Shown here: piece by piece, positions 3,241-62,820 of the stretch | Position numbering within the stretch: position 1 is the first letter of the stretch | Layout: every line of letters begins with the position of its first letter | IMG/VR virus record: IMGVR_UViG_3300021403_000004 | Coordinates: 32,001-96,000 of that record | Strand: one strand, 5' to 3' | Origin: a virus | Lineage: Duplodnaviria > Caudoviricetes | DNA: 64,000 nucleotides | Position numbers and translations under genes: made by a program | Notes under the pieces: generated by a model | Told to the model about the DNA's origin: nothing | Database searches by the model: none | The model's input: only the letters and a program-made list of their open reading frames with translations

Positions 3241-4395
3241 ATGCCAGCAAACGTAGATGCCATGTTCTCCGTCCGCCAGGTGCCCTGGCACCGGGAGGGC
3301 ATCGTCACCGACGACTACCCGCAGACGTTCGCCGAGGCCCGGGCCCTGGCCGGGCTGGACTGGGACCCCGTCGCCTACCCGGTGACCAGCGAGCAGGTGA
3401 TGACCGCGGCCCAGTTCCGCGAGCGCGCCCGGGACCTCATCATGTCCCGCGGGGAGCTGAGCGCTGATGAACTGGCCAGCGACGTCACCAGCTTGTGGCT
3501 AGAATCCTTCCGGCGCCCTGTCAATGACGTGGTCGTGTTCGGCCCCCTGGTCGCCGAGATCGTGGACAGCGCCGCTGACGACAGTGACCAGTGGCGCCGG
3601 ATCGCCCGCAGCGACACCGGGGCCACGCTGTCATACCAGCGCGCTTCCTACAGGCTCATCCCGAACAGCGACTTCGGCGAGATCATCGACGCCGTCACCG
3701 GGTCTGACAGCACGGTCAAGCTGGAGACCGGGGGCTGCCTGGACGGCGGGCGCCGGGTCTGGATGCTGGCCCGGCTGGACGAGCCGCACCAGGTAACGGC
3801 CCGCGGGCGCATTGACGCGTCTTACAGCTTCCCGTACCTGGGCGTCACCAGTGACCACACCGGGAAGGCCAGCTGCGCGGCGCGGCTGACCGAGGTCAGG
3901 ATCGTGTGCGGGAACACCTACTCACTCGCTGAGGCCGAGGGCGAGCGCACCGGCGCGGTCTTCTCCTTCAGCCACCGCGGGGACTGGCGGGACCGGGTCA
4001 CCGAGGCTCGCGAGGCCCTGCAGTTCGCCCGCAACGAGGCGCGGGAGTACACCGAGGTGATGAGCGGGCTGCTCGGGATCGCGGTGACCCCGGCGCAGCA
4101 GCAGCTGTGGCTGCGCGAGTTCATCCCGGCCCCGCCGGACGGCATCGTCTCAGACCGGGTGATGGCCAACATCGAGACGGCGCGCGCGGCCGTGCTCGGC
4201 TTCCTGAACGGGCCGACCGTGGAAGGCGCTGGCATCGGCGGCACCGCGTACGGGCTGGTGCAGGCGGCTGGCGAGTACCTGGACTGGGCGCGGCGCGCGA
4301 ATTCCTGGGAGAGCCGGCTGAACCGCAACCTGCTCAAGGCCGAGCCGCTGAAGGCGAAGGCGGCAGCGCTGGCAAGGGAAGCGGCACTGGCGTGA
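3241..4395 (+). CDS. DUF932/DUF945-family phage/plasmid-like protein
   Basis: MFSVRQVPWHREG, AGLDW, ETGGCLDGGRRVW, VRIVCGNT, GTAYGLVQAAGEYLD motifs. Confidence 0.85.
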   Translation: MPANVDAMFSVRQVPWHREGIVTDDYPQTFAEARALAGLDWDPVAYPVTSEQVMTAAQFRERARDLIMSRGELSADELASDVTSLWLESFRRPVNDVVVFGPLVAEIVDSAADDSDQWRRIARSDTGATLSYQRASYRLIPNSDFGEIIDAVTGSDSTVKLETGGCLDGGRRVWMLARLDEPHQVTARGRIDASYSFPYLGVTSDHTGKASCAARLTEVRIVCGNTYSLAEAEGERTGAVFSFSHRGDWRDRVTEAREALQFARNEAREYTEVMSGLLGIAVTPAQQQLWLREFIPAPPDGIVSDRVMANIETARAAVLGFLNGPTVEGAGIGGTAYGLVQAAGEYLDWARRANSWESRLNRNLLKAEPLKAKAAALAREAALA

Positions 4396-4580
4396 ACACC
4401 TGGAAAGCTTACGGGACAGGCGCACACGACCTGATGAAGCTGGAGGTGAACCACGAGCCGGGCACAGTCACGGCCCGCGTCTTCATCATCGGCTCCCAGG
4501 GCGGCACGCATGGCGCCATCGAGGTGCGCATGACGGACCTGCTCCGGCTCCTGGCGGGACTGACGGCCAGCAGGTCCTGA
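4392..4580 (+). CDS. hypothetical protein
   Basis: GTGA overlap with the upstream stop; operon-like packing. Confidence 0.5.
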   Translation: MNTWKAYGTGAHDLMKLEVNHEPGTVTARVFIIGSQGGTHGAIEVRMTDLLRLLAGLTASRS

Positions 4581-4599
4581 GCGGAAAGAAAGAGAAGGC

Positions 4600-5178
4600 A
4601 TGGGAACACGAGGATTCATCACCTTCGCCGTGAACGACGAGGAGAAGACGGCCTACAACCACTGGGACAGCTACCCTGATGGCCTGGGCCTGGCGGTGCT
4701 AGGGTGGCTGCGGGAAGCGGCCAAGGACCCGGCGGCCTTGCGCCAGCAGGCAGCTGCCCTGCAGGTCGCCAGCCCGGGCAGCGCGCCCACAGACGAAGAC
4801 GTCGCCCGGCTCGCCGGCTTCGCGGACCAGGGCGTGGGCACCGGGAGCCTGCGCGACTGGTACGTCCTGCTGCGCGCCACGCAAGGGGAGCCGGGCCTGA
4901 TGCTGGCAGCGGGGGTCATTGAGGACGCCCGCGACTTCCCGCTGGACTCGCTGTTCGCTGAGTGGGGCTACGTCATCGACCTCGACGGAGACGGCCTGTT
5001 CGAGGTGTACCGGGGCTTCCAGAAGCAGCCGCACGACCTGGGCCGGTTCGCTAGCCGTAGCGAGCCAGGCGGCAACCACGGGTACTACCCGTGCGCCCGC
5101 ACGGCACGCTGGCCGCTGGCGGCACTGCCGGGCAACGAGGAGTTCCTGGCGCAGCTCCGGGAAGACGACGATGAGTAA
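4600..5178 (+). CDS. hypothetical phage protein
   Basis: purine-rich RBS; MGTRG..YNHWDSYP.GLG..EWGYVIDLD pattern. Confidence 0.75.
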   Translation: MGTRGFITFAVNDEEKTAYNHWDSYPDGLGLAVLGWLREAAKDPAALRQQAAALQVASPGSAPTDEDVARLAGFADQGVGTGSLRDWYVLLRATQGEPGLMLAAGVIEDARDFPLDSLFAEWGYVIDLDGDGLFEVYRGFQKQPHDLGRFASRSEPGGNHGYYPCARTARWPLAALPGNEEFLAQLREDDDE

Positions 5179-5182
5179 CCTT

Positions 5183-5840
5183 GCGGCCCGTGACCACTAG
5201 CCAGCCAACCACGCCATGCCGCCGTGAACCCGCAGCCAATGACCGTTAGCCAGCCAACGACGCCATGCCGCCACTCAGTGTCAGCCAGCCAACGTACCGG
5301 TGCCGGCAGCCAAGGAGCAACTAGCCAGTCATGAACCCGCAGCCAGGGGGCGTTAGCCAGCCAGGACAAAAATGCAGCCCTTGAACGTGTGCCAGCCATC
5401 GGGATCATGAGCTAGCCCGCAGTAAACGCGCAGCCATGGAACGCCTGCCTGCCATGATGATGATGATGATGATGATGATGCACATGACCACCAGTCAGCC
5501 ACACTAGACGAGCAGCCATCGGACGCTTGCCAGCCATCATGATGATGCACACGACCTGCAGCCAGGGGGCATTAGCCAGCCACGGTACATCAGCCCTGAG
5601 TGACGGTCAGCCAACGATGCGGAGCCGCAGCCAGGATATACGAGCCAGCCATCATCCCGCAGCCAGGGCATGCAGCCATACGACCTGAGCCAGCCAGCGT
5701 GCCGGTGTCCTGCAGCCACGGGTTTACAGCCAGCCAAGGTACGCGTGCCCCGCGCGGCCAGCAGAACTCAGCCAACCATGCAGCCAAGACGAAGTGGCCA
5801 GCCAGCAGCCTCCTGGCACGCGCGGCGAAGTAGCCAGCCC
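5183..5840 (+). repeat. TIGR-like dual-repeat array 1 (degenerate)
   Basis: recurring GCAGCCA-N9-AGCCAGCCA units; contains an (ATG)9 run at ~5454-5480. Confidence 0.8.
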
Positions 5841-5888
5841 GTGCCCCGATGAGTTATACTGCATCAGACACCAAGAAAGGACGAGGCC

Positions 5889-6137
5889 ATGACAACGCGA
5901 TGGCCTGACGGCTTCAAGCCCCAGTACTGGTCGGGTGACCGCTGGGTGCAGGAGGAGCGCGCCACGCTGCCCGGTGGCATCACGGCGGCGGAACTGCCGG
6001 CGTTCCTGGCAAGCGAGGGCATCCCGGGCACCGCGGAGCTCACTGCCATCACGGAATACGACGAGGACGGCCCCGTCGTGCAGCTCCGGTGGCTCACCGG
6101 CGTCCCGGAAGAGAAGGCAGGAGGGGACAGGGCATGA
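5889..6137 (+). CDS. hypothetical protein
   Basis: TATACT at 5855, GAGG RBS, ATGA coupling to the next gene. Confidence 0.65.
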   Translation: MTTRWPDGFKPQYWSGDRWVQEERATLPGGITAAELPAFLASEGIPGTAELTAITEYDEDGPVVQLRWLTGVPEEKAGGDRA

Positions 6138-6352
6138 TCGTCCACCGTGGCCTGAAGCACGTAAGCGCCACCGGCTCCACGCTCGGGTTCTCGCTAGAGG
6201 ACAACCTGCACGTGCGCCTGGAAGGCAAGGAAGTCCAGCGGGTGCTTGACGAGATCGCCTGGTCCGCACCGGAACTGCTGCACATGGCCCTGGAGCGGCG
6301 CCAGGTCCGGCTCATCACTGAGGCAGTCAGGAACGAGGAGGGCGCGGCATGA
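6134..6352 (+). CDS. hypothetical protein
   Basis: ATGA-coupled on both sides (MIVHRGL...). Confidence 0.65.
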   Translation: MIVHRGLKHVSATGSTLGFSLEDNLHVRLEGKEVQRVLDEIAWSAPELLHMALERRQVRLITEAVRNEEGAA

Positions 6353-7281
6353 CGCACTTCATCGTGCTGGCCTGCCTGGAAGACCCTGGCCAGCTGAGCG
6401 AGATGCTCGCGCCGTACGACGAGAACAGGGAAGCAGCGCCATACCGCAGCTATGAAGACGGCCTGCCCGAGGAGCACTGGGCCGTGAAGAGCCTGCGCGC
6501 TGAGGGCAAGCTCCCAGACGGCCCGCTGACCTGGCAGCAGGTCGCGGACGCGGTCAATGTCGCGTACTGCCAGGGTGCCGACGATGAAGGCGACCATCTG
6601 TTCCTTGATGAGGACACCGACCGGGCCTACATGATGTCCACGCGCAACCAGCAGTCCAAGTGGGACTGGTACACCGTCGGCGGCCGGTGGGGCGGTTCCC
6701 TGCGCTACAAGCCCGGGCACGCTGGCGAAGTCCTGATGCCAGAGCAGTCGTGGAGCTCACCGGAGAAGTTCCCGTTCTTCGGCTGCGATGGCGGCCCCAA
6801 GCGCGCGCTGGACCTGGAGAAGGTGCGCCAGGATGCGGAAGACGAGGCCAGGACGCTGTACCGCGAGTACCAGGGCCTGGTGGCAGGACTGCCAGAAGCG
6901 GTCCCGTTCAGCGTCTTCGCCGGCATGGTCAGCGAGGGCAGCGGCTACACCATCGAGCGCGCGCGGCAGGAGTACCACAGCCAGCTGCGGGTGGCACGAC
7001 TCAATGCGGAGGGCAGCCCGTTCCGGTGGTCCAGCAAGGACGTGCTGGAGGTGTTCTCCGTCAGCGAGGACGAGCACGCACGGCGGCAGCGGGACCAGGC
7101 CGTGCCCGGCTACGCGCTGCTCACGACCGACGGCGAGTGGATGGCGCCAGGCACGATGGGCTGGTTCGGCATGAGTGACGACGGCCCGGACGACCGGGCT
7201 GCCTACCTGCGCGCGGCCAACGCCTACGTGGACAGCCTGCCCGATGACGCGTGGCTGGTCGTGGTGGACTGCCACATCTAG
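6349..7281 (+). CDS. hypothetical phage protein
   Basis: 310 aa; KWDWYTVGGRWGG and terminal VVVDCHI motifs. Confidence 0.8.
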   Translation: MTHFIVLACLEDPGQLSEMLAPYDENREAAPYRSYEDGLPEEHWAVKSLRAEGKLPDGPLTWQQVADAVNVAYCQGADDEGDHLFLDEDTDRAYMMSTRNQQSKWDWYTVGGRWGGSLRYKPGHAGEVLMPEQSWSSPEKFPFFGCDGGPKRALDLEKVRQDAEDEARTLYREYQGLVAGLPEAVPFSVFAGMVSEGSGYTIERARQEYHSQLRVARLNAEGSPFRWSSKDVLEVFSVSEDEHARRQRDQAVPGYALLTTDGEWMAPGTMGWFGMSDDGPDDRAAYLRAANAYVDSLPDDAWLVVVDCHI

Positions 7282-7530
7282 CCAGCAGGAGAACGTGCCG
7301 CCATGACCGTGAAGCCAGCCCCCATGATGCTGAAACCAGTCATCATCCCGCAGCCAGAGCATATGAGCCAGCCAAGATCGCGCAGCCAGATCCGTTCAGC
7401 CAGCCACGATAGGCGAGCATCCTGCAACACGGCCAGTCCATGGGAGCCAGCCGAGATAGTCCAGCCCGCAACGCAGCCAGAGCACGCGAGCCAGCCACTA
7501 TGCCACAGCCCGACGGCTACAGCCAGCCCC
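7280..7530 (+). repeat. TIGR-like dual-repeat array 2
   Basis: GCAGCCA-N9-AGCCAGCCA units. Confidence 0.8.
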
Positions 7531-7583
7531 ACTTCAATGCCTGCGCAGAGGCAAGAGAACTGCGACCCGCTACCATCATGACC

Positions 7584-7696
7584 AGCCCCCGCCAGCCGGG
7601 GCTTACAACCTTTCTCCCCGGTTACAACAGCCCGCCTGCTTCGGGCGTGAGACCGTGCATGGCGCTTCACGCGGAAGGCGAGATCTGGCGGGGGCT
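7584..7696 (+). ncRNA. putative structured ncRNA family C, copy 1
   Basis: terminal stem GCCCCCGCCA/TGGCGGGGGC; internal motifs shared with 8286-8397. Confidence 0.55.
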
Positions 7697-7723
7697 CTCC
7701 CGGGCGCAGGCCCTGCAGTCACT

Positions 7724-7900
7724 GACATCCAATGGACTTGAGCCAGCCAGGGTAGATGTGCAGCCTCAACACCTGAGCCAGCCAATGGAGTACAGTCAAC
7801 GCACCTGAGCCAGCCAGTGAAGTACAGCCATGGCAGGTCAGCCAGCCAAGGTAAATGTGCAGCCAGAGCATGCTAGCCAGCCGAGGCCAAGATGCAGCCT
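7724..7900 (+). repeat. TIGR-like dual-repeat array 3
   Basis: 5 regular units; spacers 9 nt and 7/10 nt. Confidence 0.85.
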
Positions 7901-7925
7901 CACGATAACTGAATAAGGAGAACAA

Positions 7926-8089
7926 GGGCAGGCCAGGAATTGTCCGGCGTTCGGGGAGCGGAATCACACAGCAACATTCATGTGATCCTCGCCGCTCCTG
8001 TCACCGGGCAGGCAAGGCGCACGCCAGGGAAGGGCCTTACACTACAATCTCTTCCCGTGCCTTCAGGAGTTCGATCCTCCTGCTGTCCA
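7926..8089 (+). ncRNA. tRNA-like structured ncRNA family A, copy 1
   Basis: GGGCAG/CTGTCC-A acceptor-like stem; AGGAG-TTCGATC-CTCCT T-arm; two long arms with variable loops. Confidence 0.65.
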
Positions 8090-8116
8090 CGCAAGACAAC
8101 TGAATAAGGGGAACAA

Positions 8117-8281
8117 GGGCAGGCCAGGAATTGCCCGGCGTTCGGGGAGCAGGCTTATTGGAGAAATCCAGTCTCAGCTCTCTGCTCCTGTCACCGGGCA
8201 GGCAAGGCGCACGCCAGGGAAGGCTTCTAATTAGCAGGATGCTTTTCCGTGCCTTCAGGAGTTCGACTCTCCTGCTGCCCA
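8117..8281 (+). ncRNA. tRNA-like structured ncRNA family A, copy 2
   Basis: same scaffold, different loops; T-arm AGGAG-TTCGACT-CTCCT. Confidence 0.65.
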
Positions 8282-8285
8282 CGAG

Positions 8286-8397
8286 GCCCTCGCCGGCCGG
8301 ACCTCCACGGTTAGGCAACTGCCGGTTACAATAGCCGCCTGCATCGGGTGCGTCAACTGACATGCACGAGCGCACGGAAGGCGGATACGGCGAGGGC
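8286..8397 (+). ncRNA. putative structured ncRNA family C, copy 2
   Basis: terminal stem GCCCTCGCCG/CGGCGAGGGC, with compensatory changes relative to copy 1. Confidence 0.55.
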
Positions 8398-8481
8398 GCT
8401 CACCACTGAATAAGCACGTGCCGCCAGAAGACCTCGGCCAGCCAGCGGGATCGTGAAGCATAAACTGAATAAAAGAAACAA

Positions 8482-8631
8482 GGGCAGGCCAGGAATTGCC
8501 CGGCGCTCGGGGAGCGGAGAAATGTGTACTTCACGCTTCACCACCGCTCCTGTCACCGGGCAGGCACGGCGCATGGCAGAGAAGACCCTTTTTCTTCTCG
8601 CGCTTCGGAAGTTCAAGTCTCCCGCTGCCCA
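8482..8631 (+). ncRNA. tRNA-like structured ncRNA family A, copy 3
   Basis: same scaffold, shorter second arm; T-loop TTCAAGT. Confidence 0.6.
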
Positions 8632-8647
8632 CGCGCGACAACGTCAT

Positions 8648-8872
8648 CCAGCCGCCAGCGCTCTTAAGCCCGCCAAAGTAGACCTGCAGCCAGCAGATCC
8701 CAGCCATCGGACCCCAGCCAGCCATCGTTCTCCAGCCAGCGCTTGGCCTTGGCAATGCCTGCGCAGAGGCAAGAGAACTGCGACAGCCAGCGCATGTGAA
8801 TCCGCCAAGATCGCACAGCCAGATAACCTCAGCCAGCCATCGTTCTTCAGCCAATGAACCCGGGCCAGCCAA
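8648..8872 (+). repeat. TIGR-like dual-repeat array 4 (degenerate)
   Basis: CAGCCA-N9-AGCCAGCCA units. Confidence 0.7.
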
Positions 8873-8889
8873 GGGAAAGGACAGTACCC

Positions 8890-9432
8890 ATGACAACGAA
8901 GGTAAAGGCCGAAGCCGCTAACGACCGCGCCCGCCGGCTATGGGACGGGGACGCGCACAGCACGGCGCAGGCGCTGCTCAAGGAGCTGATGGACGACCCG
9001 TCGCCCCAGGAGGCCATCCTGGTGCTGCTGCCGTGGATCACCGACCGGGTCCGGGCGGCCATTCGCACCGACGTGCGGGCAGCGGAGGAGAGCGCCTTCA
9101 CTAACCCGTCCGGCCGGCCCGACCGGGTCGCCCAGCACATCCGCTCGCAATCGGGCGCGCTGCCCGCGCTGGACAACCTGGAGATGCTGCTGTCGCTGCC
9201 GGTCCTGGTGCCCGTCGCGGGCAGCGTGACGCAGTCAGTCCTGTGGAAGGACATGACCATCGCGGATCACCAAGCCAGAATCGGCATGATCAGCAAGCCC
9301 CTGGCCGCCATTAACGCGGCCATAAGCCGCCATCGGTGGTCTATCGCCGAGATAAAGAAGCACAAGGTGGAGTGCCTCGGGCAGATTGACCTCGCCGTGC
9401 TCCGGGCTGAGATGCTCAGCTCCCGGGCGTAA
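8890..9432 (+). CDS. hypothetical protein embedded between arrays (candidate Tas accessory)
   Basis: AAGGA RBS; 180 aa; flanked by arrays on both sides. Confidence 0.8.
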   Translation: MTTKVKAEAANDRARRLWDGDAHSTAQALLKELMDDPSPQEAILVLLPWITDRVRAAIRTDVRAAEESAFTNPSGRPDRVAQHIRSQSGALPALDNLEMLLSLPVLVPVAGSVTQSVLWKDMTIADHQARIGMISKPLAAINAAISRHRWSIAEIKKHKVECLGQIDLAVLRAEMLSSRA

Positions 9433-9448
9433 TACCGCCGCAGAACCT

Positions 9449-9867
9449 CAGCCAGCTATCGCAGGACAGCGAACTTGCCGCCAAGAGACCCTAGCCAGCC
9501 CTGGTTCCCCAGCCGGGAGCTTTTGCAGCCAAGCTACTACAGCCAGCCAACGACCTGCAGCCAAACTACCAGAGCCAGCCAAGGTACCGCAGCCTAGGGA
9601 GATCAGCCAGCCACTGAAGGCCTGCAGCCAAACTACCGGAGCCAGCCAATGCCGTGCAGCCAAGCTACTGGAGCCAGCCAACGATCTTCAGCCAACCTAC
9701 CGGAGTCAGCCAAGGACCTGCAGCCGATGATCATCAGCCAAGCTACTACAGCCAGCCAACGACCTGCAGCCAAGGATCGACAGCCAGCCAATGTTCTTGT
9801 GCAGCCATGTACTGACAGCCAGCCACGGAGCCGGTGGCACATGCAGCCAAGGTTTGTGGGCCAGCCA
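9449..9867 (+). repeat. TIGR-like dual-repeat array 5 (most regular; directly upstream of the tasA-like gene)
   Basis: ~11 units, mostly 32 nt: GCAGCCA-N9-AGCCAGCCA-N7. Confidence 0.9.
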
Positions 9868-9896
9868 AAGAAGAACAGAAGGGAAAACAAAAGAAA

Positions 9897-10793
9897 ATGA
9901 ATAAGGAGTACTGGCAGCTTCGCACTGCCGGGCGGAATTACTACGACGCCTACCGGCTCACCACCCGGATCGGCAACCGGCTGCGCGCGCTTGCCCGGGC
10001 CGGCGAGGCCTATGACATCGACCTTCATGCGCAGCTGGAAGCGGCGACTGCCATGAAGGACACCAGCGGGCGCATCCTCGTCCGCGTCTACAAGAACATC
10101 GGCCCCCTGAAGGTCCGGGAATTCCAGAAGGCCACCCTGGGCATCGGCGAGGTGTGGATGGCCCGGCTGATCGGGGAAGTGGGCGACTTCGTCACCTACA
10201 CCGAGGCGTGGTGGGAAACCCCGGATGACGCGCGCGGCCCGCTGGCCTCCGATGACTTCGATGACGACGACGATGAGCTCGGTGAAGAGGACGAGGACGA
10301 AGCGCCCCGGCCCAAGCGGGTGCTGGCAATCGGCGACGTGCGCTCCATGGGCGTCCGCGAGCTGTGGGCGTACTGCGGGCACGGTGACGCCGAGCGGCGC
10401 CGGCGCCGCAACCAGACGCAGGAGGAGGCCCTGGCTTCCGGGAACCCGGCCGCGAAGATGATCGTGCACCAGATGGCCGAGTTCGCGCTGCGCTCCAACG
10501 GGGCACCGGACAAGAACGGCAAGGCCCGCGGGCAGACCCCGTACTACCCGTGCTACGTGCGGGCCCGGGCGCACGCAGAAGAGCTGCACCCCGACTGGAA
10601 GGCCGGCCACGTCTACAAGCACGCGGTGCGGATAGTCGGCAAGGCCATCCTCAAGGACCTGTGGCGCGTCCAGCACGGCTACGAGCCCATCTACGGCGCG
10701 CACCAGGATGACTGGGTGCCGCGCCGCCCCCTGGTGCAGCCTGAGCGCACGGCACGAGCCGCCGTCCCGGGGCGCGCACCCGCTGGCGTGTAA
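9897..10793 (+). CDS. tasA: TasA-like Nop-domain RNA-binding protein (IS110 C-terminal-like, no nuclease domain)
   Basis: N-terminal coiled coil; LGIGEVWMARLIGEVGD, LWAYCG, GNPAAKMIV, HAVRIVGKAILKDLW match the IS110/Nop fold pattern; no DEDD/RuvC or HNH; flanked by dual-repeat arrays. Confidence 0.8.
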   Translation: MNKEYWQLRTAGRNYYDAYRLTTRIGNRLRALARAGEAYDIDLHAQLEAATAMKDTSGRILVRVYKNIGPLKVREFQKATLGIGEVWMARLIGEVGDFVTYTEAWWETPDDARGPLASDDFDDDDDELGEEDEDEAPRPKRVLAIGDVRSMGVRELWAYCGHGDAERRRRRNQTQEEALASGNPAAKMIVHQMAEFALRSNGAPDKNGKARGQTPYYPCYVRARAHAEELHPDWKAGHVYKHAVRIVGKAILKDLWRVQHGYEPIYGAHQDDWVPRRPLVQPERTARAAVPGRAPAGV

Positions 10794-10809
10794 AGCTCGC
10801 CACCGTTCT

Positions 10810-11032
10810 TCAGCCAGGATCCTGGAGCCAGCCAAGGTAAACGAGCAGCCAGAGAACAACAGCCAGCCCGCGAACTCGTGCAGCCATTGAAGACCAGCCA
10901 GCGTATTCGTGCAGCCATCCCCGCCCGAGCCAGCCATGGGCCGTGTGAACATGCAGCCACGCAACCAAAGAACAACAACCAGCCATTGACCATGTGACGG
11001 CTCTTAATAATCCACGCATGAGCAGCCAGCCC
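10810..11032 (+). repeat. TIGR-like dual-repeat array 6
   Basis: GCAGCCA-N9-AGCCAGCCA-N10 units downstream of the tasA-like gene. Confidence 0.85.
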
Positions 11033-11051
11033 ATCATCTGGTGAAGCAAGG

Positions 11052-11093
11052 AAAAAGCCCCGTACCGGGAAACCGGTGCGGGGCTTTTCTTTT
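11052..11093. terminator. bidirectional intrinsic terminator
   Basis: AAAAAGCCCCGTACCGG-GAAA-CCGGTGCGGGGCTTTTCTTT between convergent transcription units. Confidence 0.85.
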
Positions 11094-11121
11094 GCCTTTT
11101 TTCACGCTGCCCCTGGACGCG

Positions 11122-12108
11122 TCATGCCAGGCCCTTCACCACGGCCCAGTCGCGCAGCGCCTGCGCCGCGTGCTTGTTTCCTGCCGTGTGCATGAGCGTG
11201 GTCCACGCGCTGGTCTTGGCCCACAGCTCCTGGTCGTGCACGTCATGGAGCGCCGGGGCGGGCGGCACGGGGACTGGCGGCGCTGGAACGGGAGCTGGTG
11301 GCACCGGGACGGGAAACGGTCGGCCGGTGAGCGCAGTGTAGTCCGCGGCAAACTGGGGCAGGCTGACGCCGTCCAGGAATTCCCGGCTGTTGAGGTGCTC
11401 AGGCCAGATGACGGCCCAGCACTCCTGCACCTGCCGGCTCCAGAACGCGTCCGTGAAGCTCGTCTCCTGGGCCCACGTGATGAACGCCTCGTCGCCGCCG
11501 AGCTGCCCGGTGCCACCGGAACCATAGCCGCCGACCAGCACGGAGTGGCCGCCCTCGTCCGGTGAGCCGGGCACGTAGTCCCAGGGCTGGCCGACGCTGA
11601 ACTGGTCCTGGTTGGCGGACTGGACCACGATGCCCGTCCACACCGCGCCGAAGATGGCAATGGCGGCCTTGACCTCATCCGGGTTGGTGTAGTCGACGGC
11701 AGCGAAGCCGAGCGCCTTCACGCCGTCCGGGCCGCCGTTGGCCACCAGGTCCTCCAGCGCCGTCTGGATGTCCATGCCGTTGTCCTGCTGGGGGAAGCCC
11801 GGGTTCTGCGTGGCGTAGAACGCCCCTACCTGCGGCAATGTCGGGTAGTACTCCGTGCTGAGCACGGCCGTGACCAGGCGCCGGAAATCCGCCCATGTTA
11901 CCGCGACGCAATCGCCCGCACCTTCGGCCGGGAACCCTGCCGCGACGTTGGCGGGATCAGGCCCGTTGCCGAGCATCTGCCAGCCCTGCAGCCGCGCCAG
12001 GTAATCGGCTGCAGGCGGGTGCGCGGGGACCACGCCCGTCAGTGACCGGCTCAGCCGGACGCGCGGGCGCCGGGGGTCATTCGGGCGGCGGCCGAATTTG
12101 AGGGTCAT
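11122..12108 (-). CDS. papain-like cysteine peptidase (possible lysin)
   Basis: GDCVAV catalytic Cys, GGHSVLVGGY His, FITW; Pro-rich linker and small C-terminal domain. Confidence 0.7.
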   Translation of the reverse strand: MTLKFGRRPNDPRRPRVRLSRSLTGVVPAHPPAADYLARLQGWQMLGNGPDPANVAAGFPAEGAGDCVAVTWADFRRLVTAVLSTEYYPTLPQVGAFYATQNPGFPQQDNGMDIQTALEDLVANGGPDGVKALGFAAVDYTNPDEVKAAIAIFGAVWTGIVVQSANQDQFSVGQPWDYVPGSPDEGGHSVLVGGYGSGGTGQLGGDEAFITWAQETSFTDAFWSRQVQECWAVIWPEHLNSREFLDGVSLPQFAADYTALTGRPFPVPVPPAPVPAPPVPVPPAPALHDVHDQELWAKTSAWTTLMHTAGNKHAAQALRDWAVVKGLA

Positions 12109-14058: not shown

Positions 14059-14598
14059 TCACAGCGATTTCCGCTGTTTACGCTGCAGGTACATCTTTCG
14101 GTAATGATCCTTGCGGGCACCACTTGCATTCCTGGCGTTATCCCGCGCCTGAGCGCATGCCCGGCATTCCCTCTTGCCATTTTTGCGCAGGATGGTATTA
14201 GCTTCCGTGAATTCATGCCCTTGCGGGCACTTGTTCTCGCGAACCAGGATAGCAGTCGGGTGCATCCCGCGGAGCATGTTGACTGACCGGGTCACCGGGT
14301 CGCCGTGCCAAGGGTTCACGCAGGCCCGGTTACGGCACAGGTGATCAGGTTCCAGCTCAGGATCGAACTCGCCACGGTACAGCCGCCAGGCAATCCGGTG
14401 CGCTGTCGTTGGCCGCCACTTCCCGTCTCCGCACTTAACATTGAACAGAGCGTAACCTGTCTTCTGGAAGTGCGCGCCTGACCAGGCCCAGCAAGGTCCC
14501 GGGCACAAATCCTCATCCGGTGATGGTGGCCCTGGCAGCAGCTTGGCCTCGAACCGCTTGTGCATATCCCAGGTAACCGGGATTTGAACTCGTTTCAC
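14059..14598 (-). CDS. HNH homing endonuclease
   Basis: CWAWSG..GY..AHR..DHLCRNRACVNP.H; CPQGH..RECRAC. Confidence 0.9.
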   Translation of the reverse strand: MKRVQIPVTWDMHKRFEAKLLPGPPSPDEDLCPGPCWAWSGAHFQKTGYALFNVKCGDGKWRPTTAHRIAWRLYRGEFDPELEPDHLCRNRACVNPWHGDPVTRSVNMLRGMHPTAILVRENKCPQGHEFTEANTILRKNGKRECRACAQARDNARNASGARKDHYRKMYLQRKQRKSL

Positions 14599-14703
14599 AC
14601 ACGGAGATTACCTAGTCCTGGGTGTAAAAAACAAGACTTGGCACCCCGGTTAAGCACCTGTACCCATACAGGAACGCGCCCGCGTCTTTGCGCAGGTCGT
14701 CGC

Positions 14704-15228
14704 TCACGAAGCGGGCAGCCCGAGGGCCGGAGCGACGATCGTGCGGTACCACTGGGTCGCCTGCGCGCCCCCGCGGGCGAGGTCCGTCAGGCCCTCATAG
14801 CCCTCATGCACCTCGCCGGTGAACTCGTTCTCCCAGGCCCAGCGGGCGCCCTGGCCGTCCAGCCACTGGCCCAGCTCCGCGACCAGGCGGGCGTGCAGGT
14901 CACCGCAGCCATTGCCGTCGGAGTCCCGGTAGCCGTACGGCGTGTCGAAGGAGGCCTCCAGCCAGTGCGGGAAGCAGCGCCGGTGGCGCGCGTCCTCGTC
15001 ATCAGGCTCGCAGTACCGGTGGTGGCCGCCCTCGGCAACCAGTGGCGCGTCCGTGCCATAGTGAACGTCCAGCAGCGCGAGCAGCCCCTGGCCGGGCTTG
15101 TTCCCGATGTAACCGCCCTCATCGGTGAACTTGATGCCCTCGTGAGCGCCGATGAGCCGGTTGCACGCTACCCACACGGCCCGGTAGTCCACCTTGCTGA
15201 TCACGTACACGCGTGTGTCCAGGGTCAT
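14704..15228 (-). CDS. hypothetical protein
   Basis: ATGA-coupled ORF with GC3 bias. Confidence 0.7.
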   Translation of the reverse strand: MTLDTRVYVISKVDYRAVWVACNRLIGAHEGIKFTDEGGYIGNKPGQGLLALLDVHYGTDAPLVAEGGHHRYCEPDDEDARHRRCFPHWLEASFDTPYGYRDSDGNGCGDLHARLVAELGQWLDGQGARWAWENEFTGEVHEGYEGLTDLARGGAQATQWYRTIVAPALGLPAS

Positions 15229-15497
15229 TGCACGTTCTCCTCAAACCAGGCGGCCATCTCACGGGCGCGCTCGTGAACGGCGTCCAGCTCCTGCTGCGTC
15301 CAGGCAGGCAGCTCCAGGCGCGTCACGGTGCCCGCGTCGGTGTCCAGCACCAGGACGTCACCCGGCATCACGTCGTGCAAGCCCCACCGGGCCAGCTCCA
15401 CCTCTGCCACCATGCTCACGCTGCCCTCCCGGCGCAGGTCAACAGTGGCCTCATCGCCAGTGACCTCGATCACGATGCCGTGCCAGGGCTGGCTCAC
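15225..15497 (-). CDS. hypothetical protein
   Basis: coupled ORF. Confidence 0.65.
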   Translation of the reverse strand: MSQPWHGIVIEVTGDEATVDLRREGSVSMVAEVELARWGLHDVMPGDVLVLDTDAGTVTRLELPAWTQQELDAVHERAREMAAWFEENVQ

Positions 15498-15877
15498 GAT
15501 GCCTCTTCCTCCAGCCAGCGCTCCACCCGCTCGCTCAAGATGGCGTAGCGCACGGCCATGTCCTGCCGTTCCAGTGCCGCCGCGCGGGTCTCCGGCGCCC
15601 GCGGCACGTACACCGGGACGGACGCGAACTGGCTGGCGGTGGCGTCGAGCAGCATGCCGCCGGGCAGCCGGTTCACCGTGTGCCGCATGTCCATGCCGGC
15701 GTCAACGACAAGGAACCGCACGAGGTCGCCGCCGGCATAGTCCTGGATCACCAGGGCCGATACCGTGCACTGCCCGCACGCAGGGTTCCCGGGCGTCCAC
15801 CGGTCCGGGAAGGCGCTGGTCTCCCGTATCCAGGATTGCCGCAGCGCCGCCAGGACGTCATCAAGCACGGGATTCAT
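15494..15877 (-). CDS. YunG-like protein
   Basis: W..ET...GQCTVSALVIQDY.GG.L..H..N..DATASQF. Confidence 0.6.
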   Translation of the reverse strand: MNPVLDDVLAALRQSWIRETSAFPDRWTPGNPACGQCTVSALVIQDYAGGDLVRFLVVDAGMDMRHTVNRLPGGMLLDATASQFASVPVYVPRAPETRAAALERQDMAVRYAILSERVERWLEEEAS

Positions 15878-15919
15878 GACGTTAGCATACTGCGTCAGAC
15901 TGCGCCGCGCTGTGCCGGG

Positions 15920-16345
15920 CTACAGCGCCCCTGCCTGGATCGACAGGCGGGCCCCGAAATAGGTGACCCCGGCATAGTCCACCCGCCCGTAGCTGTCAGC
16001 GGCCAGCGGCACGGCGAAGTGCACGGCGCCGCCCAGCGTCGGGTCCTCCTGGATGGCGCCGGCGATGCTGGCCGGGACGCTGTCATCCACGCCGATGCCC
16101 AGGTAGGCATCCAGCGCGCGCTGCACCTTCTCCACCGGCGCCCCGTCGCTGAGCAGCAGCAGCACCCGCAGGTTCACGGTGAAGGCGCCGTCCACGGTGG
16201 CGCCGTAGGTCACCACGGGCTGGCCGGGCAGCACCACGGCCACCGGCGGGCTGACCTGGTCACGGGCTTCCGGCAGGGCGCGCAGTCCCGTGCCCGTGGT
16301 AATCCGGGCGGCCAGGGCGGTGCGGATAGCGGCAAGGTCAGTCAC
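15920..16345 (-). CDS. tail terminator / head-tail completion protein
   Basis: IRTALA..PP.AVV..Q..LDAYL..SI..AI..DPTLGG pattern of actinophage tail terminators. Confidence 0.65.
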   Translation of the reverse strand: MTDLAAIRTALAARITTGTGLRALPEARDQVSPPVAVVLPGQPVVTYGATVDGAFTVNLRVLLLLSDGAPVEKVQRALDAYLGIGVDDSVPASIAGAIQEDPTLGGAVHFAVPLAADSYGRVDYAGVTYFGARLSIQAGAL

Positions 16346-16940
16346 AGTCAGCGCTCCCGGGATCACGGCGCGATGCTGGCTCCTGCCCGGGCTCGTGCCC
16401 TGGGGAGAACGCGCCCGCTCCTGGCGTCATCGCGGTAACATGACGGTGAATTTCCGTCAGCAGCGCGCTGGCTGCCTCGATCCGCGCCGTCATCTCATTA
16501 TTGACGGTCAGGAGCGCGTCCAGCTTTCCCGTCTCGCTGTAATGCGCGAGCGCCTGCTCTGCTGAGACCCGGTCAGCCCGCTTGGCCGCGATCAGGATCA
16601 GCGCTCCCTGCAAGCCGGCCATCATCGACAAGCACAAGTTCAGCAGGATGTACGGGTACTTATCGAACCCGTGCCCGCGCAGGAACAGTGAATTGAACGC
16701 CATCCAGGCGCCCATGAAGGCCAGGAAGCTGCCAACGAACGCCCACGACCCGAAGGCGTTTCGCATCACGTCCGCAGCGCGCTCGCCAAAAGTCAGTTCC
16801 TGCCCGGTCCGGACGTGCGGATGGCGCTTCCACAGCTCGCGCCCTGACTTCAGCCCGCGCACCAGCTGGTAATGGCGCTCAGGCAGCTCCACGCGGCCAT
16901 CCTTGATTCCTGGCAGCCACGTGCGACGACCCGTTACCAT
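16338..16940 (-). CDS. DUF1003-family membrane protein
   Basis: GERAAD..FGSWAF..FDKYPYILLNLCLS..LQGALIL. Confidence 0.85.
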   Translation of the reverse strand: MVTGRRTWLPGIKDGRVELPERHYQLVRGLKSGRELWKRHPHVRTGQELTFGERAADVMRNAFGSWAFVGSFLAFMGAWMAFNSLFLRGHGFDKYPYILLNLCLSMMAGLQGALILIAAKRADRVSAEQALAHYSETGKLDALLTVNNEMTARIEAASALLTEIHRHVTAMTPGAGAFSPGHEPGQEPASRRDPGSADCD

Positions 16941-18305: not shown

Positions 18306-18507
18306 AGCCAGTCAAAGAAACAGCAGCCCAGGGACGCGAGTCAGCCAAGGACCAGCAGCCCGAGATCGCTTGCGCGCCAAGGACCAGCAGCCCGAGATCG
18401 CTTGCCCGCCAAGGACCAGCAGCCCGAGATCGCTTGCCCGCCAAGGACCAGCAGCCGAACCAGATGAGCCAGCCAGAAGACGGCAGCCACCGCCGGTCAG
18501 CCAGCCG
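18306..18507 (+). repeat. TIGR-like array with three near-identical 32-nt units
   Basis: (GCAGCCC-GAGATCGCT-TGCCCGCCA-AGGACCA)x3 plus unique units. Confidence 0.8.
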
Positions 18508-18672
18508 AAGACTCCCTGACCGTCATGGCTCACCGGCCGCGGGGGCAGCCCGACTTCACGTTGTCCACCGGCACGAGGGCCGGGCAGTTCTGCGTCGTCA
18601 GCACGCCCCGCGTTAGCCCGGTCCTTACCTTGATGACCATCACGCCTCACTCTTCCCCGTTCCGTAAAACGA

Positions 18673-18822
18673 CCAGCCATGAGACACGTGCCAGCCTCAG
18701 CGGCCCTGCAGCCAAGCGACTACAGCCAGCCACCCCATGCGTGCCGCCCTATCCGCTCAGCCAGCCAGCGTAGATGTGCCTTATGCCTCCCCTTCCTGCT
18801 GCCACAGATCGACAGCCAGCCA
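18673..18822 (+). repeat. TIGR-like mini-array
   Basis: GCAGCCA-AGCGACTAC-AGCCAGCCA and similar units. Confidence 0.7.
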
Positions 18823-21746: not shown

Positions 21747-24700
21747 GCGCCGCCTCCGGGGAAGGTCACCGTTGCCCGGCTGCTGGCAGCTGGCGTCACG
21801 CTGGCGCCAGCGCTGTAGCCCTTGATGACGTTCGCGGCAGCTGACACGGCGGGCAGCGGGGCCACCGCCAGCGAGCTGGCCAGCTGGGCCCGGGCCGTCA
21901 CCACGGCGGCTGCAGCCAGCGCTGCCGCGGTCGCAGCCGCCAGCACGGGCGTCCGGGCCGGGACCGCGGCCTGCGCGGTTCCTGCGCCCGTGGCCAGTGC
22001 GGCACTGGCGGTCACGCTCGCCACGGGCGGCTGGGCAGCCCCGGTCCCGGCGCCCAGGCCGGGAGCCTCAGCTGCCTGCGCTACCGGGCTGAGGGCCGCG
22101 CCCGTGCCTGCTGGCAGTCCCGGCACCCGGCCAGGCACGGGCGGCTGGGCAGTGCCCGTGCCAGCGCCCAGGCCCGCTGCGGCGACAGCTTGCGCACCAG
22201 GAGACTGCGCCGTGCCTGCGCCCGTGGCCAGCCCGGCACTCGCCGTCGTGCTGCCTGACGTGGACGCCGTGGCCGTCAGTGCCGCGCCCGTACCGGAAGC
22301 CAGCCCGGCAAGGACGGTGACCTGCGCACCAGGGGGCTGGGACGTGCCCGCACTGACGGCCGTGCCCGGCGTGAGCGCCACGGCTGGCTGCTGCGCGGTC
22401 CCGGCACCGGGCGCCAGCCCGGCACTGACCGCGTCTTGTACTGCCGGGAGCTGGGCCGTGCCAGCGCCCGTGACCAGCCCGGCGGCTGCCGCGAGCTGCG
22501 CGGCCGGGGCTTGCGCGGTTCCCGTGCCGGAGGCAAGGCCAGAAGCCGTTGCCGCGGTGGCCACGGGCGGCTGCGCGGTCCCGGTTCCGGTGGCAAGGCC
22601 CGGCTGCGCGGTAACTTGCGCACCCGGAGCCTGGGACGTGCCCGCGCCCGCAGCCAGCCCGGCATTTGCCGTGGTGTTCCCTGACGTCGATGCTGACGGG
22701 GCAAGTGCCGTGCCCGTCCCGGCAGCCAGCCCGGCACTGACGGTGACTTGCGCACCCGGAGCCTGGGCGGTGCCCGTGCCCGTGGCCAGTCCCGTGCTGG
22801 CAATCGCGAGCGCTCCCGGGGCCTGGGACGCGCCCGTGCCTGCGGCCAGTCCCGCGCTGGCAATGACCTGCGCTCCCGGGGGCTGGGACGTGCCCGTGCC
22901 TGCGGCCAGTCCCGCGCTGGCAATGACCTGCGCTCCCGGGGGCTGGGACGTGCCCGTGCCTGCGGCCAGTCCCGCGCTGGCAATGACCTGCGCTCCCGGG
23001 GGCTGGGACGTGCCCGTGCCTGCGGCCAGTCCTGGAGCAGCCGTGACCTGCGCGCCCGGAGCCTGGGAAGTACCTGTCCCGGCAGCCAGCCCGGCAGGAG
23101 CGGCAGCCACGGCAAGGGGGGTGTCCAGCGCCGCGCCGGTGCCCGTGGCCAGCCCCGGAACTGCCGTGACGACGGCAAGAGGGGTATCGAGTGCCGCGCC
23201 CGTCCCGGCAGCCAGGCCCGCTGGCGCCGTGGTGGCCGGCACCGTGGCCGCCGGGCTGGCGATGGCCTGCTGCTGGCGCCGGTAGCGCCGCTGCCACAGG
23301 TCCGACCCGGGCTGCACGGGCGGCGCCGTCACGGCCGGCTGGGCAGGCGGCCCCTGGAAGGCCAGCACCCAGTCGGGATCGCCCTGGCTGTTGCTGCCCT
23401 TGGCCGTGGAATTGTACGTCGTGCCCGTGGCAGCAGGCGACGTGGCGCCGTTGACGGGGTCAATCCAGGTCGCGGTGTACCCGGGATTCAGCAGCGCCTG
23501 GTTGACGGTGATCGTGGTGGCGTGGCTGAGGTACACCACGGCCAGCGAGCCGTCTGGCGTGATGGAGCCGGTGACGTAGGCGTCCGTCGTGGAGGACTCA
23601 TACTGGCTGGTGGTGTACGTGGAGTGCGTGCCGCGCCCGGACGTGATGAACTGGCTGGCCGTGTCCGGCAGCAGGTTCTGCCAGCCGGGCAGCCCCTCGA
23701 ACGCCGTCCTGATCGCCAGCGCGCTGTTCTTCCAGAACCAGCCGGTCGCCGCCTGGTTCTGGGCGGTGGCCGGCCACTCCCAGACGCCCTCATCACCGTG
23801 GATCTTGCCGCGCGCGCCTGACGACAGCGCCCACCAGGACTCTTGCCGGAAATTGCGGTCGAACGCGAAGCTCGACCCGCCGACGTACGATGAGCCGCCC
23901 TGGTAGAAGTAGCCGTCCCCGGCGATCACCGGCACGGTGCCGTCAGCCGAGTACGCCAGCTCAACCCCGTAGTAGATGACCTGGTAGCTGTAGACGAAGT
24001 TGTACTGGGCGTTGGCGAAGCCCCACGCCTGGTGGGTGTTATTGCCGTCCAGCGTCAGGCGGCTGGTGGTCTCGGGATTGTTCTCGATGGACACCACGTG
24101 CGCGTCCCCGGCCGCGCGCACGCCCGTCATGAACGCCGTGATCAGCGCGTCATTCTCGCCGAAGTAGTCATCGGCAAGGTTCCAGACGAGGTTGGGCAGG
24201 CCTTTGTACCGGTTGCCGAGCGCTGTGCCGTACGCGGTGAACTCTGCCGCCGACTTGCCGAACAACGGCCCGGGACCGGAGCTGAAGTCGCTATCGTAGC
24301 CGATGGCGTTCAGGAACACGCAGATGCCCTTGGCCCGGGCGCTGGCCAGGAAGTAGTCGATCCGCTGCCAGTACGCTTCCGTCAGGCCCGACGACGGGCT
24401 CGCGCCCGATGTCCCGGTTGACGGCGCGCCGCCCTGGAAGGGGTACAGCCCGTCGAACGTCACGCCCTGGTCGTTGATGTTGCCGGACTGGGTGGTGCCC
24501 ATCGGCTTGGTGTAGACGACGTTGACGCCCTGGGCCTGGCGGGTGGCCAGGTAAGTGTCGTAGTCGGCCTGCCAGGCGCCGGACGTCCAGCGCCCCACGT
24601 TGCCGCACAGCGCCCAGGCTGCGTCGCCCCACACCAGCCGGGGCGTGCCGTACTGGTCGGTGAAGTACCCGTTCGCGCCGCCCGCGGTGCCCGTGATGAC

Positions 24701-54085: not shown

Positions 54086-54357
54086 TGGCTGCCTTACCTT
54101 GCTTGGCTGCACCTCTTTCTTGGCTGGCTGTCGTGCTCTGGCTGCACGCATCGCGTGGCTGGCTGCCGTGCCCTGGCTGCACGCATCGCGTGGCTGGCTG
54201 CCGTGCCCTGGCTGCACGCATCGCGTGGCTGGCTGCCGTGCCCTGGCTGCACGCATCGCGTGGCTGGCTGCCGTGCCCTGGCTGCACGCATCGCGTGGCT
54301 GGCTGCCGTGCCCTGGCTGCACGTCTGCAATGGCTGGCTGTCGCCTTCTGGCTGCAC
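54086..54357 (-). repeat. TIGR-like array of eight 35-nt units, mostly identical
   Basis: minus strand GCAGCCA-GGGCACGGC-AGCCAGCCA-CGCGATGCGT repeated, with unique end units. Confidence 0.9.
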
Positions 54358-61299: not shown

Positions 61300-61383
61300 A
61301 GGAAGAACGACGAGTCGAACGCCACGGGTCACCCCGCGATCCGCTTTCAAGGCGGTCCCAGGCACCGGCCTGGATGATCTTCC
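61300..61383 (-). tRNA. tRNA-Ser(TGA)
   Basis: loop CTTGAAA; long variable arm. Confidence 0.8.
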
Positions 61384-62594: not shown

Positions 62595-62820
62595 GTAGTT
62601 GTTGCACATATTCACGTCTTGCATCTTTACAGTCATCACATTTTGGCGGCCCACAAAGGGCTGCGGTCCCCTTGCAGTCCCGCAGTGGCCTCGCGAGCAG
62701 AGCCTGACCTCAGAATCGGACTGAGCGATCTTCCCGTACGAAGGGACGACGTGACCCAGCACGTCAGGCATGAAGCTCGTCCCGGTTGGGCGCGCGATGG
62801 CTTATTGAGGACGAGCTCCG

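Follow-up and report, generated by a model that had tools for sequence, protein, structure and literature searches.

Three tRNA-like RNAs with variable hairpin tips in the TIGR-TasA locus of a soil actinobacteriophage-like virus

Three structured repeats lie in the array of a TIGR-TasA locus

The DNA considered here, referred to as the window, is a 64,000-nucleotide stretch that corresponds to bases 32001-96000 of the IMG/VR virus record IMGVR_UViG_3300021403_000004 (106,870 bp, ~69% complete). It carries a TasA-like gene with dual-repeat TIGR arrays on both sides, and within these arrays, on the + strand, lie three transfer RNA (tRNA)-like RNAs that are the subject of this report. The window has a G+C content of ~66% and contains 30 tRNA genes called by ARAGORN, and the virus is present in sequencing runs labeled soil metagenome. 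Considering that its terminase shares 40% identity with the terminases of Mycobacterium phage Redno2 and related phages, and that portal, capsid, and protease genes were found in the window, we regard the virus as actinobacteriophage-like.

An earlier reading of the window (the original prediction) described three repeats with a constant scaffold and two variable loops, each 150 to 165 nt long and each with a leader, an acceptor-like stem, a T-arm, and a short D-like loop. Repeat analysis and folding of the single copies bore out this description in every structural detail. The features of the three copies are given below, with scores from R1, a covariance model built from the three copies.

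7907-7925, + strand: A-rich conserved leader of copy 1
7926-8089, + strand: tRNA-like RNA copy 1 (164 nt; R1 score, 184.6 bits)
7926-7931 paired with 8083-8088, + strand: acceptor of copy 1, with the discriminator A at 8089
7932-7934 paired with 8011-8013, + strand: D-like stem of copy 1
~7941-8010, + strand: hairpin H1 of copy 1, variable tip at ~7962-7991
~8014-8063, + strand: hairpin H2 of copy 1, variable tip at ~8034-8049
~8064-8082, + strand: T-arm of copy 1
8098-8116, + strand: A-rich conserved leader of copy 2
8117-8281, + strand: tRNA-like RNA copy 2 (165 nt; R1 score, 183.1 bits)
8463-8481, + strand: A-rich conserved leader of copy 3
8482-8631, + strand: tRNA-like RNA copy 3 (150 nt; R1 score, 159.6 bits)

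The leaders lie directly 5' of the copies and share the consensus ACTGAATAA followed by RRRRAAACAA; that of copy 1 reads ACTGAATAA followed by GGAGAACAA. Four exact ACTGAATAA sites occur, all within 7908-8472, and one of them is free-standing at 8405. We rejected ACTGAATAA as a sigma-70-type promoter, and a promoter scan of 6900-11200 gave no + strand promoter-like site. Scaffold identity to copy 1 is 81 to 96% (repeat families D6, D10, and D11). Copies 1 and 2 stand in tandem, 27 nt apart, and are 93 to 96% identical in leader and scaffold, with tips that bear no resemblance to each other. The 106,870-bp record holds no copies beyond these three.

When folded alone, every copy gives the same four-way junction, with minimum free energies of -68.5, -81.4, and -65.5 kcal/mol and z-scores of -2.95, -4.09, and -2.81 for copies 1, 2, and 3; the numbers of shuffled sequences that folded equally well or better were 0, 0, and 3 of 200. 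In all three copies, an acceptor helix of 6 bp (GGGCAG/CUGYCC) is followed by an unpaired A. The D-like stem has 3 bp, and its loop opens with AGGAAUU (a GG loop) and then bears H1, which consists of 7 bp, an internal loop, 8 bp, and the variable tip. H2, composed of 7 bp, a 6-nt bulge, 7 to 8 bp, and the variable tip, occupies the position of the anticodon arm. The T-arm has a 6-bp stem and a 7-nt loop of the UUCRA type (UUCGAUC, UUCGACU, and UUCAAGU in copies 1, 2, and 3), and acceptor and T-stem together make up 12 stacked pairs (6 + 6 bp), as in tRNA. H1 and H2 are thus the two long arms that the original prediction had proposed, with conserved stems and unlike distal loops. We rejected k-turn and box C/D motifs in the internal loops of both, as no tandem G-A pairs are visible in the folds.

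Where the scaffolds of the copies differ, pairing is mostly preserved: upper H1 has a G-C to A-U change, the T-stem an A-U to G-C change, and H2 several changes. Copy 2 has the scaffold of copy 1 with the compensatory G-C to A-U change in upper H1 and with both tips changed, and copy 3, which shares the scaffold, is the most diverged and has one A-C mismatch in its T-stem. Several of the pairs are G:U, which would be A:C on the opposite strand, and the UUCRA T-loop is readable only on the + strand; the RNA is therefore placed on that strand.

The H1 tips measure 30, 29, and 26 nt and the H2 tips 18, 20, and 9 nt in copies 1, 2, and 3, and neither variable segment can be aligned between copies. 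All are rich in A, U, and C against the 66% G+C of the genome, and they form partly self-paired hairpin ends whose shapes differ between copies. The original prediction had called for a search of the loops for complementary sequences; neither strand of the 106,870-bp record contains a tip match of 11 nt or more, and 10-mers match at chance level. One DNA run that covers 7822-8489 is identical to the window and so is uninformative on variation of the tips between strains.

Related loci keep a reduced element with the same acceptor

The TasA family has 65 detectable homologues, from which we compared nine metagenome contigs, four distant IMG/VR contigs, and two isolated phages. Two soil contigs, L242 and L243, encode a TasA that is 71 to 74% identical to that of the window and extend far enough upstream for comparison, and both carry an element upstream of tasA and of the conserved partner gene that precedes it. 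The L243 element, preceded by the same ACTGAATAA 9-mer leader, is 46 nt long; it consists of an acceptor, a D-like stem of 3 bp whose loop reads AGG, a linker of 6 nt, and a T-arm. The L242 element is 71 nt long and has one short hairpin at the H2 position. With R1, the L243 and L242 elements score 29 and 25.2 bits, and with model R2, they score 35.9 and 56.1 bits. What these orthologues share with the window copies is the acceptor, D-like stem, and T-arm. The acceptor/T-arm minihelix with its elbow, and not the loops, is therefore the conserved core, and H1 and the long H2, which both contigs lack, are additions of the window's lineage.

The three copies and the two orthologues (five sequences from three loci) were combined in alignment A4, which was fitted to the structure model. 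In A4, pairing holds in 97.7% of 175 cells, and both partners change in 11 of 45 pairs, compared with 4.3 ± 1.5 in shuffles, none of 500 of which reached 11 (the alignment being model-fitted); when the partner was slid, just 1 to 4 pairs were double-changed. The D-stem and T-stem covary across the five sequences, with D-stem pair 9:87 appearing as C-G, G-C, and G-U. Covariation in homologues, proposed as a check in the original prediction, was found on this model-fitted alignment. The acceptor GGGCAG/CUGYCC is identical in all five sequences. The original prediction also reported an alanine identity (G3:U70 plus A73), and both elements of it are present in copy 1. The other four sequences, however, have G3:C70, and the discriminator is A in the window copies and G in the orthologues, so an alanine or transfer-messenger RNA (tmRNA)-like identity is not a conserved feature. 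No CCA is encoded after the discriminator of the window copies or of the L242 and L243 elements.

Of the phage's own tRNAs, one was compared in sequence: tRNA-Gly(UCC), at 62820-62891 of the window on the - strand. It too has no encoded CCA, its six acceptor pairs (GGGCAG/CUGCCC) are those of the tRNA-like RNAs, and its T-loop differs by one base from that of the L243 element. By this resemblance, tRNA-Gly(UCC) is a possible ancestor of the tRNA-like RNAs.

A more distant locus shows a different arrangement. In L006, an IMG/VR contig of 132,904 bp whose TasA is 33% identical to that of the window, ARAGORN called four tRNA genes on the tasA strand:

4143-4218 of L006, tasA strand: tRNA-Cys
5222-5305 of L006, tasA strand: tRNA-Tyr
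7138-7212 of L006, tasA strand: tRNA-Leu
8333-8406 of L006, tasA strand: tRNA-Gly

These genes are interleaved with TIGR-type array blocks in the region 3500-8700, and in places the nearest repeat is ~5 to 60 nt away. Against an expectation of 2.8, the L006 array repeat, ACGATNCCCA, occurs 42 times, and 40 of these sites are on the + strand.

The tRNA-like RNAs match no described family

The copies matched no Rfam (version 15) family at the gathering score, and a scan of 7000-10000 at an E value of ≤10 likewise gave no match on them and no tRNA match in that region. ARAGORN called neither a tRNA nor a tmRNA at 7926-8631, although it called 30 tRNAs in the window. At an E value of ≤10, the L242 and L243 elements gave no Rfam tRNA match, and YrlA (Y RNA-like) and the other Rfam tRNA mimics matched neither these elements nor the window copies. 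The sole Rfam tmRNA match, 17 nt on the L243 T-arm (11.7 bits; E value, 4.1; gathering score, 84), is nonsignificant.

Of the hallmarks of a tRNA, the acceptor/T-arm stack, the 7-nt UUCRA loop, and the unpaired discriminator are present in all three copies, with deviating loops in the orthologues; in place of a 5-bp anticodon stem and 7-nt loop, the window copies have H2, a 50-nt bulged hairpin, and L243 has nothing. Through the acceptor and T-arm alone, R1 weakly matches tRNAs of the phage itself (E values, 0.05 to 1.4), which confirms the tRNA likeness of that half. The tmRNA combination of a tRNA-Ala domain with G3:U70, a tag open reading frame, and pseudoknots was not found, nor was the IS110 bridge RNA combination of an adjacent DEDD and Tnp recombinase with two complementary internal loops. 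TIGR RNA (tigRNA) units are present in the surrounding DNA and absent from the tRNA-like RNAs. What the RNAs do share with plant mitochondrial t-elements is a nondecoding tRNA-like fold at the border of functional RNAs, with cotranscription suggested by the common strand and a terminator-like hairpin. As judged from sequence and predicted fold, the three RNAs belong to no described RNA family. The claim that their class could not be assigned thus held under Rfam, at both thresholds, and ARAGORN, and the proposed Rfam check left them without an assignment.

Searches for further members were negative. No viral contig contained an exact match to a 17-mer scaffold word, and with a 15-mer word, R1 run on 80 of at least 116 viral loci gave one match at chance level (E value, 0.78). 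A leader-plus-acceptor pattern yielded no R1 match at an E value of ≤1 in 20 viral loci and 80 of at least 120 genome-contig loci, and a gapped acceptor pattern yielded no R2 match at an E value of ≤0.1 in 80 of at least 117 viral loci. Twelve of the gapped-pattern matches spanning 61 nt were aligned (10 near-identical and 2 of a second type), and a T-arm hairpin was evident in neither type. TasA-family alignment A3 found nine loci in metagenome contigs and gave no relative in viral contigs or genome contigs. A blastn search of 7800-8700 against 50,697 phage records returned no match, R2 matched nothing on the whole records of four distant TasA viruses, and a scan of Mycobacterium phage Omega gave only noise (≤11.8 bits). 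With filters off, R2 on 14 loci gave as its sole new match the true tRNA-Tyr of L006.

Organization of the surrounding TIGR-TasA locus

The original prediction placed the RNAs inside an array locus beside a TasA-like gene. This placement is correct, and the array is a dual-repeat TIGR array. The other features of the locus are as follows:

7313-7905, + strand: TIGR dual-repeat sub-arrays with a 32-nt period (14 + 18), broken by element X
7585-7700, with a second copy at ~8290-8400, + strand: element X, a second structured-RNA candidate (orthologue at 2020-2130 of L243)
8640-8850, + strand: TIGR sub-array, resuming ~15 nt past copy 3
8890-9432, + strand: conserved partner gene of tasA (180 aa from the ATG at 8890; an open reading frame start at 8854 is also possible)
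9440-9830, + strand: TIGR sub-array between the partner gene and tasA
9897-10793, + strand: TasA-like gene (298 aa from the ATG used by database homologues)
10826-11031, + strand: TIGR sub-array downstream of tasA
11053-11088, + strand: intrinsic-terminator-like hairpin (16 pairs plus a T run)

The array units consist of a AGCCAGCC edge repeat and a CAGCC loop repeat with short variable stretches between them. The window contains 62 AGCCAGCC sites, compared with 6.2 expected, in blocks at 5199-5839, 7313-7882, 8716-8838, 9493-9824, and 10826-11031 and in three other places. These three lie far from tasA, at 18467-18821 and 22298-23091 (+ strand) and at 54122-54339 (- strand), and one far block is a regular run of 7 units with a 35-nt period on the - strand, just upstream of the terminase gene. 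The hairpin at 11053-11088, judging from its position and form, would close the + strand unit. An exact 32-nt repeat (family D13) at 7535-7566 and 8753-8784 has ~10 times the surrounding depth in metagenome runs and many unrelated flanks; it is therefore a short motif common to many genomes in those soils and possibly a promoter or protein site.

The TasA-like protein matches the NCBIfam model TIGR_Tas_endo (TIGR-Tas system RNA-guided endonuclease) with an E value of 3.2e-17 at 63 bits, under the 100-bit cutoff, and a family profile built from 50 homologues matches PDB 9mty (E value, 4e-5) and TasH (E value, 1e-4). No nuclease domain was detected in the 9897-10793 product, a Nop-domain TIGR-associated protein, and we therefore call it TasA-like. 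By Pfam at an E value of ≤10, neither a DEDD nor a Transposase_20 domain was found in the protein adjoining the RNAs. Arrays flank the partner gene and tasA on both sides and also lie between the two, an architecture that fits the dual-repeat TIGR arrays described in the available text of Faure et al. 2025.

A homologue of the partner gene lies directly upstream of tasA in 6 of the 13 loci searched. Its product has no Pfam match at an E value of ≤10, no PHROG match, and a lone NCBIfam match (E value, 0.07) well below the cutoff. An AlphaFold2 model (mean pLDDT, 76.6) consists mainly of long helices, Foldseek returned no match in PDB at an E value of ≤0.001, and the Atlas gave no usable match. 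The protein is not assignable to a family or fold, and it could not be equated with the "TasParB" that appears in the available text of Faure et al. 2025.

Element X has an invariant CCGGUUACAA stretch and a CGGAAGGC box. RNAalifold on three sequences predicted 34 pairs, 8 of which have a compensatory change, and no significant Rfam match was found. Three metatranscriptome libraries, each from a different study, yielded contigs that match the window over 7309-7885 and 9461-9825 with 100% identity, so that element X is covered by RNA-library contigs from all three. These contigs are compatible with transcription of the arrays and element X, with DNA carryover a possible source. None covers 7926-8632, in contigs that capture structured small RNAs poorly, and this result is neutral either way.

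A role as tRNA-derived processing modules is tentatively favored

We propose that the three elements could be tRNA-derived, nondecoding, t-element-like modules in a long TIGR-TasA noncoding transcript, from which they would be excised by RNase P and RNase Z. Our confidence in this reading falls somewhat short of even. Of the three functions suggested in the original prediction, array punctuation with maturation by RNase P and Z is the one favored by the comparative data at hand, because the orthologues keep only the minihelix and a distant TIGR-TasA locus has real tRNAs between its array blocks. The acceptor/T-arm part that is kept here matches the requirements of RNase P, RNase Z, and the CCA-adding enzyme. 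The elements lie at the borders between sub-arrays, element X, and downstream genes, in a locus laid out as one + strand unit ending at the strong terminator-like hairpin; the three copies share one four-way junction, with 11 of 45 pairs covarying in the five sequences; and L006 provides a natural parallel, with tRNAs between array blocks on one strand.

Under this proposal, the host RNase P would cut at G1 and RNase Z past the discriminator, and the cuts would separate the flanking array segments and mRNA and free a compact, exonuclease-resistant, tRNA-shaped RNA. The history might have begun with tRNA genes as parts of TIGR transcription units, as the layout of L006 suggests. In the window's clade, one such tRNA unit may then have lost its decoding arm and kept the part that RNase P, RNase Z, and the CCA-adding enzyme would recognize, and in the window phage, the module would have gained two arms, H1 in the D-loop and H2 at the place of the anticodon arm. 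The stems would be under selection and the tips free to vary, so the released 150- to 165-nt RNAs may have a function of their own.

Several observations weigh against processing as the full explanation. According to the available text of Faure 2025 and Xu 2026, Tas itself processes dual-repeat TIGR arrays, and tigRNAs can thus be released without punctuation of the tRNA type. In the orthologues, the T-loops (UCCGAUU and AUCAGCA) depart from the canonical UUCRA. The element was not matched in L005, L007, L008, L512 (Arthrobacter phage Talia1610), or L513 (Mycobacterium phage Omega), nor in L245 within the 711 nt that precede the partner gene, and it is therefore an optional accessory of TIGR-TasA loci, dispensable in relatives as far as these searches indicate. 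(An H1-like match at 3478-3523 of L245, with an E value of 0.67, was taken as chance; it lies ~1.3 kb downstream of tasA in apparently coding sequence.) Pure punctuation does not need tandem copies 27 nt apart, the acceptor sequence is invariant although RNase P and Z need only its shape, and support for the family amounts to five sequences from three loci. The maintenance of two elaborate arms with stems conserved across paralogues argues against processing as the whole story. Self-processing by Tas, dispensability, the tandem copies, the fixed acceptor, and the kept arms therefore leave room for an RNA function of its own and hold our confidence below the even mark.

One candidate for such a function lies in the tips. 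As loop-programmed effector RNAs, the tRNA-like bodies would be scaffolds whose H1 and H2 tips base-pair with nucleic acid targets, either as antisense or kissing-loop RNAs alone or as a second guide class with TasA or its partner protein. The near-identical scaffolds and unrelated tips of copies 1 and 2 form a repeat/spacer-like pattern, although a constrained scaffold with freely drifting tips and indels could yield the same picture. The A/U/C-rich composition of the tips and the presence of an RNA-guided protein family at the locus also speak for this idea, and the tandem copies are sensible if each RNA is itself the product. Yet the orthologues lack H1 and have either no H2 (L243) or a short one (L242), so the loops are not a conserved function, and the tips have no match of at least 11 nt in the virus record. 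They are also hairpin ends of varied shape, unlike both the tigRNA spacers between box C/D-type repeats and the internal loops of bridge RNAs. Taken together, we find loop programming unlikely. The specific analogy drawn in the original prediction, a two-loop guide like the IS110 bridge RNA, gained no support, given terminal tips that are absent in orthologues and without matches in the record and the lack of a DEDD domain. We also think it rather improbable that the locus holds a natural "tRNA scaffold" system, in which a tRNA-type body provides excision and stability and two exchangeable tips serve as programmable recognition loops, making a second guide-like class of TIGR RNA. There, the reader might be TasA or the conserved partner protein, and whatever process renews TIGR spacers might also exchange the tips as cassettes.

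That the elements are functionless relics, decaying tRNA genes that once stood between array blocks and took insertions in the D-loop and anticodon region, is likewise rather improbable. L006 shows the likely ancestral state, the acceptor is that of the phage tRNA-Gly(UCC), and element size ranges widely (46, 71, and 150 to 165 nt). Decay is at odds, however, with the 97.7% of cells that are paired and the 11 covarying pairs, with H1 and H2 stems preserved in three paralogues despite fully diverged tips, and with a leader conserved between the window and L243. The original prediction also raised the possibility of a decoy, here a tRNA mimic that would absorb a host factor reading the acceptor, T-arm, or elbow, such as a tRNA-targeting defense nuclease, the CCA-adding enzyme, RNase P, or a modification enzyme. 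Retention of the tRNA elbow parts (acceptor, T-loop, and GG loop), an acceptor invariant in five of five sequences, which suggests sequence-specific recognition, and the heavy investment of the phage in tRNAs (30 genes) agree with it. Nevertheless, the anticodon stem-loop, the part cut by most known anticodon nucleases, is not present, the element is specific to TIGR loci and not to the tRNA cluster at 59 to 64 kb of the window, and L243 has only one 46-nt copy, which makes a decoy quite improbable. Phage attachment sites often overlap the 3' halves of tRNA genes, and the surrounding DNA is rich in short repeats, so that a DNA-level element (a recombination or attachment site or protein-binding repeats) was also considered. 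We regard it as highly improbable, since both strands of the acceptor helix are present, the compensatory changes are of the RNA type and include G:U pairs valid on one strand, and no integrase was found among 10 neighboring open reading frames scanned.

Comparison with known tRNA-like systems

The tRNA-derived processing modules proposed here are of a known kind, tRNA-like processing or scaffold elements, in a new setting, the TIGR locus. A typical tmRNA is ~360 nt long. The window RNAs resemble it in an acceptor and T-arm formed by the two ends, a reduced D-loop that lacks a regular stem, another structure in place of the anticodon arm, and, in copy 1, G3:U70 plus A73; they differ in having no tag reading frame or pseudoknots, in showing G3:U70 in one of five sequences, and in element length (46 to 165 nt). 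The mascRNA of the MALAT1 3' end and the murine gammaherpesvirus 68 TMERs use a tRNA-like module that recruits RNase P and Z and yields a small stable RNA, and in TMERs, hairpins that vary in sequence are attached to the viral tRNA-like unit. Those belong to eukaryotic and viral polymerase II/III systems, and TMER hairpins follow the tRNA-like unit, whereas those of the window sit inside it. The IS110 bridge RNA is likewise a structured RNA with two variable regions beside a protein of the Nop/IS110 RNA-binding lineage. Its guides, however, are two internal loops that pair with target and donor DNA, whereas the variable parts of the window RNAs are hairpin tips, and at the window, neither a match to donor or target nor a DEDD/RuvC recombinase domain was detected.

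In polycistronic tRNA-guide RNA arrays built for CRISPR, tRNA units stand between the guides. The window's units differ from such tRNA-interspaced arrays in lacking an anticodon arm and in separating whole sub-arrays rather than single guides. For TIGR, the available text of a recent report describes an engineered tigRNA-tRNA array that is processed by endogenous tRNA enzymes in yeast (10.64898/2026.07.30.739390); it has tRNA units between guide units, and L006 shows this layout in nature. A further difference is that Tas is reported, in the available text on dual-repeat systems, to process dual-repeat units alone. The closest likeness is to plant mitochondrial t-elements, nondecoding tRNA-like folds at borders in longer transcripts that have been proposed as RNase Z and P cis-signals (Forner et al. 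2007, PMC1920247, in its available text). Those are organellar and lie at mRNA ends, whereas the present elements lie in a phage TIGR array; the window's units also differ in their two large extra hairpins, invariant acceptor sequence, and tandem copies.

Plant dicistronic tRNA-small nucleolar RNA (snoRNA) genes appear as references 66 and 67 in the available text of Faure 2025. Apart from such references, the main text of the two TIGR survey papers makes no mention of tRNAs or tRNA-like RNAs in TIGR loci (their supplements may map tRNAs), and the wider literature retrieved on tigRNA or TIGR arrays and tRNA comprised only reviews, the engineered yeast construct, and a preprint on noncoding mapping whose available text does not use the term "tRNA-like."

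TIGR-Tas systems were described only in 2025. Modules of tRNA origin within arrays would tie TIGR biogenesis to the host tRNA machinery, and in the tRNAs of L006 and the tRNA-derived modules of the window, L242, and L243, engineered tRNA-guide arrays would have their counterpart in nature. These tRNAs and modules would also echo plant tRNA-snoRNA genes, an interesting link given the kinship of Tas proteins with box C/D small nucleolar ribonucleoprotein proteins. The enlarged, tip-variable version would offer a ready natural example of RNA payloads carried within a tRNA frame.

Additional features of the virus and related loci

Four further observations concern the virus and the compared loci. 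The large terminase gene (window 51086-54037, - strand, 983 aa) contains an intein-like LAGLIDADG homing-endonuclease domain at residues ~315 to 379. Within the phage tRNA cluster, at 61301-61383 on the - strand, Rfam gave a tRNA-Sec match of 50.8 bits (gathering score, 47) at a site with no ARAGORN call. In L243, positions 5953-6204, ~1.5 kb downstream of tasA, match a group I intron (59.8 bits; E value, 2.3e-13). Lastly, gp21 of Mycobacterium phage Omega (L513, NC_004688.1), annotated as "transposase," is TasA-like and 30% identical to the TasA of L006; at 14400-16700 of that record, which holds no tRNA-like element, gp22 and gp21 are flanked by short, interspaced, unannotated repeats of the CGACACCCA type.

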